IMG/VR virus record: IMGVR_UViG_3300020478_000004
Coordinates: 44,526 to 108,525 of that record
Direction: 5' to 3' (one strand)
DNA: 64,000 nucleotides
From: a virus
The notes beneath the pieces are model-generated. The model did no database searches. It was not told where the DNA came from and saw only the letters and a list, made by a program, of their open reading frames with translations. Position numbers and translations under genes: made by a program. Positions 53,484 to 54,862 of the stretch are shown piece by piece (the first letter of the stretch is position 1; each line of letters starts with the position of its first letter).

Positions 53484-53822
53484 TTATAAATGAGCGTTCT
53501 TGCGATCCGGATTATGAAATAAAGACGTAGTTTCGGTTAACTCCGCTAATGCTGGGAAATCTTGGTCTGGGTGTAGCTTCTTAGCCCTTTCCAAAAGTTC
53601 TTCTTCTGATTCTCTTATATCTTCATCAGGTATACAGCAATCTACAGGGCATACCTCTTGACACATCTCTTGTCCATGAAATCCAACACATTCTGTACAC
53701 AATTCAGGATCAATATAGTAATAATCCAATCCTTCCGAATCACCATCATCAATTGCTTCATTAGGGCATTCGGGTTCACATACTGCACAGTTAATACATT
53801 CATCAGTAATAATAGTAGCCAT
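53484..53822 (-). CDS. 2[4Fe-4S] ferredoxin (YfhL-like)
   Basis: [12 protein letters not shown] and CTECVG-x6-CQEVCP. Confidence 0.92.
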
Positions 53823-53917
53823 TTTAAATCCTTATGTTATTAAATGATATAATAGTCCACCAACTATATACACTACTGTTGGTGCACCTACAAAAAATAA
53901 TGCAACTTCTAATCCAG

Positions 53918-54862
53918 TCATGTTGATACCAACTCCTTTGCTTTGGCTTGTTTAGCCATTTGGTCAGCTTTGAGCTTTTCCTTCATAGCTAACTTCCGTT
54001 CCTTCTTCTCTGTTTTTAATCTATCAATTACTACTTGTGCTTCTTCAGTTATATACTCACGCTGAACAAAGCGTCCACCTATCTGTTCACTATCCTTCAT
54101 TTCATCTAGACCTTCCATACTCTGTTTGCCAATCTCTAATATACATGGTGTATACAATTGTACAAACGTAGGTCCAACTTCACGTGCAATATGAACAGCA
54201 TTCTTAATAACTTCTTCAACTCTATTAGGTTTACTTACTGTAAGCATAGTAGAGTAATGACAGCCTGCTTCTTTGGCTATCTCAACTAAACGGACCTTAT
54301 CAAAGTTCTTACCCTTTGGAGCCATTTTAGCAACAAAGCCTTTTTGCATAAGTCCACTCTCTTGACCACCTGTATTAGCATACAACTCGTTATCAAAACA
54401 TATAGTTGTAAAGCGTTCTTGCCTAAACCATGATTGCATAGTCATATCTAATCCAATATCAACTGTAGCACCATCACCAGCTAGAACTATTACATCTTTA
54501 ATCTTATCTGGAAAACGACATCGTAATGCACGGACTAGTCCACTAGCAATAGCATTTTGATTACCAAACAAGCTGTGGATATTATTAACAGCTACATGGG
54601 GGAATACTAAACTAGTACAGCCAGTTGATCCTACAAATACTGTATCTTCTGGGTTTGGTATACTAGCCATAATATAACGAAACGCTATACTCTCTGGACA
54701 ACCCGCACATAAGCTATGTTGTTCAATTAATTCTTTACTTGAGCCTATATCTTTCCACCCTCTATCTTCTTTACCATACGTAGCATTATCAACTAAATCT
54801 TGATATTCAGGTGGCATAATATCAGCTAAATCTTCACATAATACAATCTTCTCTTTTGACAT
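53918..54862 (-). CDS. 2-oxoacid:ferredoxin oxidoreductase beta (TPP-binding) subunit
   Basis: LCAGC, STGC, AGDG-x26-DN TPP motif, YANTGGQES, YTPC. Confidence 0.9.
   Translation of the reverse strand: MSKEKIVLCEDLADIMPPEYQDLVDNATYGKEDRGWKDIGSSKELIEQHSLCAGCPESIAFRYIMASIPNPEDTVFVGSTGCTSLVFPHVAVNNIHSLFGNQNAIASGLVRALRCRFPDKIKDVIVLAGDGATVDIGLDMTMQSWFRQERFTTICFDNELYANTGGQESGLMQKGFVAKMAPKGKNFDKVRLVEIAKEAGCHYSTMLTVSKPNRVEEVIKNAVHIAREVGPTFVQLYTPCILEIGKQSMEGLDEMKDSEQIGGRFVQREYITEEAQVVIDRLKTEKKERKLAMKEKLKADQMAKQAKAKELVST

Follow-up and report, generated by a model that had tools for sequence, protein, structure and literature searches.

The window, the whole 64,000-nucleotide stretch of DNA analyzed here, comprises the final 64 kb of the 108,525-bp linear IMG/VR virus record IMGVR_UViG_3300020478_000004. 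On its minus strand lie two neighboring genes. One is predicted to encode the 314-amino-acid beta subunit of POR (pyruvate synthase; positions 53918 to 54862), a 2-oxoacid:ferredoxin oxidoreductase (OFOR), and the other encodes a 112-amino-acid 2x[4Fe-4S] ferredoxin of the YfhL/Alvin type (53484 to 53822). A first-pass annotation made from the sequence alone had described an intact beta subunit with TPP and [4Fe-4S] sites beside a 2[4Fe-4S] ferredoxin, and both open reading frames are indeed found at exactly these positions and on this strand.

The spacer between the beta and ferredoxin genes is 95 bp long. Between the two genes, a hydrophobic micro-ORF of 29 amino acids can be read from the sequence (53832 to 53921, minus strand), wherein the ATG overlaps the beta stop codon (ATGA) in a translationally coupled arrangement. 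This micro-ORF occupies the position where relatives hold OGOR beta, POR alpha or NifU genes. None of the other phage loci has a relative of it, and the spacer retains no remnant of OGOR-beta or POR-alpha genes.

Upstream of beta is a gene for a hydrophobic phage protein of 73 amino acids (55035 to 55256, minus strand), which is 86% identical and syntenic by tblastn in G004, the contig of locus L002, and which anchors the beta gene to phage DNA. Downstream, a same-strand block of metabolic-looking genes annotated by Pfam and likewise syntenic in G004/L002 extends from 47170 to 53441. It includes genes for an ALDH of 507 amino acids (51918 to 53441), a secreted thioredoxin-like protein with a signal peptide (51190 to 51891), three small unknown proteins, a ProDH (proline dehydrogenase; 49180 to 50028), a saccharopine-dehydrogenase-like protein (48047 to 49168) and an Asp/Asn hydroxylase-like protein (47170 to 47781). 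The ALDH is 62% identical to that of Nitrospina sp. 32_T5 and 38% identical to that of a pelagic Nitrospinales genome, and the ProDH is 42% identical to that of Nitrospina sp. 32_T5. In G004 the block has an additional gene for a beta-eliminating lyase (L002:8262-9623). A class II aminoacyl-tRNA-synthetase-like gene on the plus strand (43933 to 44847; PF00152) marks the edge of the minus-strand block.

Assembly continuity at this locus, a point that the first-pass annotation had marked for confirmation, is upheld by contigs from several sources. The full order of the 73-amino-acid gene, POR beta, ferredoxin, ALDH, thioredoxin-like gene, small genes, ProDH and saccharopine-dehydrogenase-like gene is repeated in G004, a contig of 126.6 kb with 85% identity to the window phage in the large terminase, and parts of it recur in five further IMG/VR contigs (six in all, from different samples). 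In Logan assemblies of three other studies, contigs cover window positions 40001 to 60000 in each of the 30 bins, and a single contig of the independent run X5 spans from the ferredoxin start through beta to the 73-amino-acid upstream gene. In runs X3 and X5, contigs matching the ferredoxin diverge exactly at its start codon (53823), and one of the continuations is the 3′ end of the NifU gene of locus L004. Thus, co-occurring phage variants differ in the DNA preceding the ferredoxin, and the variant ends at 53823 identify the beta-ferredoxin spacer as an indel hot spot.

The gene content of the window is clearly that of a phage, with a T4-like core that includes a tail sheath (1082 amino acids), a tail tube, a large terminase, a gp32-like single-stranded DNA-binding protein, UvsX and helicases. 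The phage genome has a GC content of 35.6%, and the record, a linear metagenome contig, is estimated by CheckV to be 31% complete, which corresponds to a genome of roughly 350 kb. No copy of the T4 late-promoter word TATAAATA precedes the beta gene. The word occurs once in the 64 kb, at 897 to 904 on the plus strand, about 40 nucleotides ahead of the tail-sheath gene, as compared with 13.3 ± 3.6 occurrences in shuffled sequences. This strong avoidance suggests that the word is a functional signal in the window phage. Sigma-70-like matches in the region are no commoner than in shuffled sequence. One metatranscriptome library yielded short matching contigs, some of them in bins over the beta and ferredoxin genes, for which DNA carry-over is possible.

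The predicted beta subunit carries a C-terminal TPP-binding domain (TPP_enzyme_C, PF02775) that scores 66.2 bits against a Pfam cut-off of 21.9. The protein also matches the solved PorB chain 9bt4_C (E 1e-20) and the oxalate oxidoreductase beta chain 5c4i_C (E 1e-18), and the sequence matches to solved PorB chains fix its predicted fold as the PorB type. The TPP and Mg motif GDG...N (GDGATVDIG...N) is intact, as are Cys52, Cys55, Cys82 and Cys240 (a CxxC plus two further residues) of the proximal [4Fe-4S] cluster. Wherever an alignment row has residues at these four columns, the cysteines are present, and the alignment with 9bt4_C keeps them. A TPP and cysteine motif of OFOR beta subunits has been described previously (PMC10052474). 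The N-terminal pattern cited in the first-pass annotation as typical of multi-subunit POR/OGOR enzymes is also found. The NCBIfam PorB equivalog cut-off was missed (108.7 bits versus 405, tied with VorB), but host orthologues lie equally far from these archaeal and four-subunit models, so the shortfall does not argue against placing the protein in the five-subunit lineage, though it weighs against a firm assignment of pyruvate, rather than another 2-oxoacid, as the substrate.

A search of 5.8 billion proteins with the beta sequence returned 1159 matches. Among the best 120 of these, all named matches are from Nitrospinaceae, Nitrospina or Ca. Nitromaritima (80 to 83% identity), and unnamed metagenomic proteins reach 91%. 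Among species-representative genomes, the closest loci are those of Ca. Nitromaritima (87%) and other Nitrospinota (80 to 87%), followed by Nitrospira (75 to 76%). By comparison, GenBank and INPHARED phages hold no close homologue of beta, the best match being 28 to 32% identical over part of the protein.

Phylogenetic analysis is consistent with these matches. In a quick maximum-likelihood tree of 97 sequences, the window and six IMG/VR contigs form a phage-only clade (SH-aLRT 99), which lies inside a 44-row clade of pelagic Nitrospinota (98). A careful maximum-likelihood tree of 61 rows recovers the phage clade with support of 99/99 within a 27-row pelagic Nitrospinota clade (100/98), in agreement with the nesting in Nitrospinota or Nitrospirota that had been predicted from the sequence. 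The trees show the beta gene to nest inside the pelagic Nitrospinaceae and, by that placement, to have been captured from this group. Two further sequences, L037 (PBWI01000096.1, from a MAG labeled Chloroflexota) and L057 (QJZQ01000227.1, from a MAG labeled Nitrospirae), are Nitrospinaceae-type POR betas that fall deep in Nitrospinota clades; these are probably mis-binned contigs.

The host orthologues indicate to which enzyme the phage beta belongs. In Nitrospinota, the orthologous gene lies in an operon whose Pfam content is a CO_dh-like delta, alpha, beta, gamma and a Fer4 epsilon. Each Nitrospinota genome also has a beta paralogue with 41 to 47% identity, which resides in an alpha-beta-gamma-epsilon cluster that lacks delta and directly follows sucC-sucD. 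This arrangement parallels that of N. gracilis, wherein POR has five subunits and OGOR lacks delta (Luecker et al. 2013, PMC3578206). From the delta-containing host operon and the location of the paralogue beside sucCD, we infer that the window gene encodes the POR (pyruvate synthase) beta of a five-subunit, Hydrogenobacter-type enzyme, for which pyruvate is the predicted substrate. The initial suggestion of a reductive TCA (rTCA) cycle type of OFOR rather than a heterotroph enzyme also fits, since the best matches are the five-subunit betas of Nitrospinota (85 to 87%) and then of Nitrospira (75 to 76%). In the host clade, an rTCA autotroph, POR is anabolic (PMC3578206). Just upstream of the five-subunit POR operon, Nitrospinota carry a rubrerythrin gene (L064:4992-5507, L014:4956-5465), a location that fits with oxidative protection of POR.

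The ferredoxin scores above the cut-off of the NCBIfam YfhL-family equivalog NF033683 (100.9 bits versus 86) and contains the motifs CxxCxxCxxxCP (cysteines 9, 12, 15 and 19, then Pro) and CxxCx8CxxxCP (cysteines 42, 45, 54 and 58, then Pro). It is 80% identical to the ferredoxin of Nitrospina sp. 32_T5, 71% identical to that of a pelagic Nitrospinales chromosome and 55% identical to that of Nitrospira; as judged by percent identity to these named genomes, it is of Nitrospinota origin. A ferredoxin tree (127 rows, 112 columns) has too poor a resolution for any phage clade. A ferredoxin gene adjoins OFOR genes in L002, L004, L006 and L007 as well, and the protein is presumed to be the redox partner of POR.

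Because the beta and ferredoxin genes are both of Nitrospinota origin, pelagic Nitrospinaceae are indicated as the host. The Nitrospinaceae best matches and the nested phylogeny give good support to the earlier proposal that the host is a marine nitrite oxidizer. On these grounds, the carrier is well supported as a large, T4-like phage of marine waters whose hosts are pelagic, nitrite-oxidizing Nitrospinaceae.

The phage beta appears to be maintained as a functional gene. It keeps the host residue at 154 of the 154 columns that are invariant among 80 cellular orthologues from Nitrospinota and Nitrospirota, including six invariant cysteines and the TPP motif, and V193 is the sole residue fixed in the phage copies that is absent from all host orthologues compared. 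Among the phage copies, dN/dS is 0.07 to 0.12 with dS of at least 1.2, and dS between the phage beta and the host genes is saturated. The GC3 of the beta gene is phage-like at 0.23, versus 0.28 to 0.70 for the host genes. Together these values show that the gene has been under long-term purifying selection and is no decaying passenger.

To survey OFOR subunits, host subunit sequences were used as tblastn queries against all phage DNA collected, and extra genes were examined with Pfam. The first-pass annotation had noted that the window lacks an alpha or gamma subunit, and the same absence holds for the whole 108,525-bp record, in which the host queries detected no alpha, gamma, delta or epsilon and phage queries detected no NifU or IscA. 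Additional OFOR subunits could lie beyond the roughly 31% of the genome that is sequenced; in relatives, such subunits adjoin beta.

The contigs of the Nitrospinaceae phages (L002 to L007) share with the window the same beta clade and, wherever all three genes are present, the order beta, ferredoxin, ALDH. L002 and L004 to L007 differ from it in the genes that accompany this core. G004 (L002) carries POR beta, OGOR beta, POR alpha and ferredoxin; L004 carries POR beta, OGOR beta, NifU, ferredoxin and IscA; and L006 and L007 each carry POR alpha, POR beta, OGOR beta, ferredoxin, NifU and IscA. L005 has POR alpha and POR beta, and its contig ends right after beta. Outside this clade, L008 carries POR beta, IscA and POR alpha, and G007, a complete 176-kb phage of the Nitrospira type, has POR beta and a distant IscA-like gene with no other OFOR subunit. 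Thus, POR beta is present in all phage contigs examined; alpha, OGOR beta and Fe-S assembly genes are present in some, and gamma, delta and epsilon are in none of them. The window, with POR beta and ferredoxin, is the minimal set.

OGOR beta is present in L002, the sister of the window, and in both basal branches of the phage clade. Its absence from the window is therefore most parsimoniously explained by loss. L002, L006 and L007 have OGOR betas (75%) that group together in a separate clade, and the OGOR beta of L004 (L004:10099-10974) is 90% identical to, and sister (support 99) of, a pelagic Nitrospinales OGOR beta, which suggests a second, more recent capture or gene conversion with the host. 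Among the POR betas, the quick tree places L009 (from G007) and L010 as the sister group of the Nitrospira clade (support 100), as expected for Nitrospira phages. At least three separate captures are implied by this pattern: one for the Nitrospinaceae-phage clade, one for L008 and one for the Nitrospira-type pair L009 and L010.

The reading that we favor, with a probability of roughly 0.7, is that these genes are a host-derived auxiliary pair, wherein the phage beta joins the host POR and keeps or raises its activity and the ferredoxin adds carrier. In the proposed mechanism, the phage beta would supply the subunit of the host five-subunit enzyme that holds TPP and the proximal [4Fe-4S] cluster. 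Because no alpha, gamma, delta or epsilon is phage encoded, it would have to assemble with host-made partners. The hybrid enzyme would then keep or raise activity after host gene expression is shut down, in a reaction (acetyl-CoA + CO2 + reduced ferredoxin <-> pyruvate + CoA) that serves as the pyruvate synthase step of the rTCA cycle, and the phage ferredoxin would enlarge the pool of electron carriers. What we infer is that the phage beta assembles with host subunits, that pyruvate is the substrate, that the ferredoxin is the partner and that the phage benefits. Assembly with host partners, in particular, is supported by the complete conservation of the 154 invariant positions and by the complete phage G007, in which beta is the lone OFOR subunit.

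The first-pass annotation had drawn an analogy to psbA, in which a phage replaces a labile subunit of a host enzyme. Such a replacement is plausible by analogy. The iron-sulfur clusters of OFORs are labile to O2, and the PFOR of Aquifex is wholly inactivated in air (PMC10052474). Moreover, the five-subunit enzymes are slow, and Nitrospira marina contains them in very large amounts (PMC8115632). The lability of OFORs, the slow and abundant enzyme and the Fe-S assembly genes found in relatives lend support to beta being the vulnerable part of POR.

The same genes, assembled with host subunits in the same manner, might instead serve a POR that is run oxidatively. Pyruvate would be converted to acetyl-CoA, CO2 and reduced ferredoxin, and host carbon and amino acids would be turned into reductant and energy for phage replication. 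Cyanophage auxiliary metabolic genes (AMGs) divert carbon away from fixation, which counts in favor of this alternative. OFOR reactions are reversible and have been assayed in the oxidative direction (PMC10052474). Furthermore, the beta-ferredoxin pair heads the same-strand block that contains ProDH, ALDH and saccharopine-dehydrogenase-like genes, to which G004 adds the beta-eliminating lyase. These catabolic-looking neighbors hint at an oxidative role and suit it no less well than CO2 fixation, their link to POR being putative. However, the anabolic use of POR in the autotrophic host clade (PMC3578206) runs counter to oxidative use, and relatives add the beta subunit of OGOR, the other carboxylating enzyme of the rTCA cycle. 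Moreover, nothing ties the neighbors to POR in function, and their identity to Nitrospinota genes is 38 to 62% for ALDH and 42% for ProDH. On balance, we consider oxidative use rather unlikely.

We regard as very unlikely a decoy or poison subunit, whereby incorporation of the phage beta into the host complex would inactivate POR and stop carbon fixation. An orphan subunit without partners could be dominant-negative, and phages are able to block carbon fixation, as exemplified by cyanophage CP12. The phage beta, however, retains every host-invariant position, all cluster cysteines and the TPP motif, with V193 alone being phage specific, and the NifU, IscA and POR alpha genes of relatives suggest the building of an active enzyme.

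An artifact, whether a chimeric assembly, a misfiled host fragment or a recent decaying passenger, is barely credible despite the linear, 31% complete metagenome contig and the 85 to 87% identity to host genes, since the gene order is found again in six further IMG/VR contigs of differing sample origin and in contigs of three other studies, T4-like core genes share the contig, independent contigs with the same synteny together with phage-like GC3 exclude chimerism, and a decaying passenger is rejected by a dN/dS of about 0.1, saturated dS to host, phage-like GC3 and a separate phage clade.

Returning to the favored reading of an auxiliary pair that sustains host POR, a broader proposal can be put forward tentatively. 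In the aerobic rTCA oxidoreductases, beta with its TPP and proximal Fe-S cluster may be the turnover-limiting part that oxygen damages, which would be why phages of Nitrospinaceae and of Nitrospira captured it independently. Beta and one ferredoxin could suffice as a minimal module. If true, the gene would be a “psbA of dark carbon fixation,” and chemoautotrophic CO2 fixation in the ocean interior would be shaped directly by viral infection. In the ocean water column the main nitrite oxidizers are Nitrospinaceae, which fix CO2 by the rTCA cycle, and phages with core parts of both ferredoxin-dependent carboxylating enzymes could alter the amount of carbon fixed or burned per infected cell. The invariable presence of beta, set beside the occasional alpha, OGOR beta and Fe-S assembly genes and the lack of gamma, delta and epsilon, offers a testable hint as to which subunit limits these oxygen-exposed enzymes. 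The captures from Nitrospinota and Nitrospirota were separate.

The gene pair can be compared with several known systems. The ferredoxin resembles the YfhL and Allochromatium vinosum-type ferredoxins in its score against the family equivalog, its second motif (Cx2Cx8Cx3CP) and its long C-terminal extension, but the window copy is phage encoded. Cyanophages carry photosynthesis AMGs such as psbA, which encodes D1, and the ferredoxin gene petF. As in that general precedent, the window phage would provide a single damage-prone core subunit and an electron carrier that need host partners. The pathway here, in contrast, is the chemoautotrophic rTCA cycle rather than photosynthesis, and a high turnover of beta is presumed by analogy. 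With respect to the five-subunit, O2-tolerant POR and OGOR enzymes of Hydrogenobacter thermophilus, Aquifex, Nitrospira and Nitrospina (PMC3578206, PMC10052474, PMC8115632), the phage beta is an orthologue with the same TPP motif and cysteine ligands. It differs in being an orphan, with none of the partners alpha, gamma, delta and epsilon encoded in the 108.5 kb.

The closest precedent is provided by VP_99 and VP_1723, phage populations from Lake Baikal that are T4-like and associated with Nitrospirota (Coutinho et al. 2020, Microbiome 8:163; PMC7678222). These carry a host-like 4Fe-4S ferredoxin and a POR-beta-like “ferredoxin oxidoreductase,” together with genes for Fe-S biosynthesis and an OGOR epsilon subunit, and it was proposed in that study that such genes modulate dark carbon fixation (PMC7678222). 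We found no paper in the open-access literature on marine Nitrospina phages with these genes. Like the window phage, the Baikal phages are T4-like, are predicted to infect nitrite oxidizers that use the rTCA cycle and carry a host-like ferredoxin and POR beta. The window phage differs in its marine, Nitrospinota host and in its separate capture, since its clade lies in Nitrospinaceae rather than Nitrospira. Its record has neither OGOR epsilon nor an Fe-S assembly gene, and its GC content is about 36%, versus about 47% for the Baikal phages. The concept is therefore already published for freshwater Nitrospira phages, and the window extends this known idea, its particular interest being the minimal form of beta plus ferredoxin.
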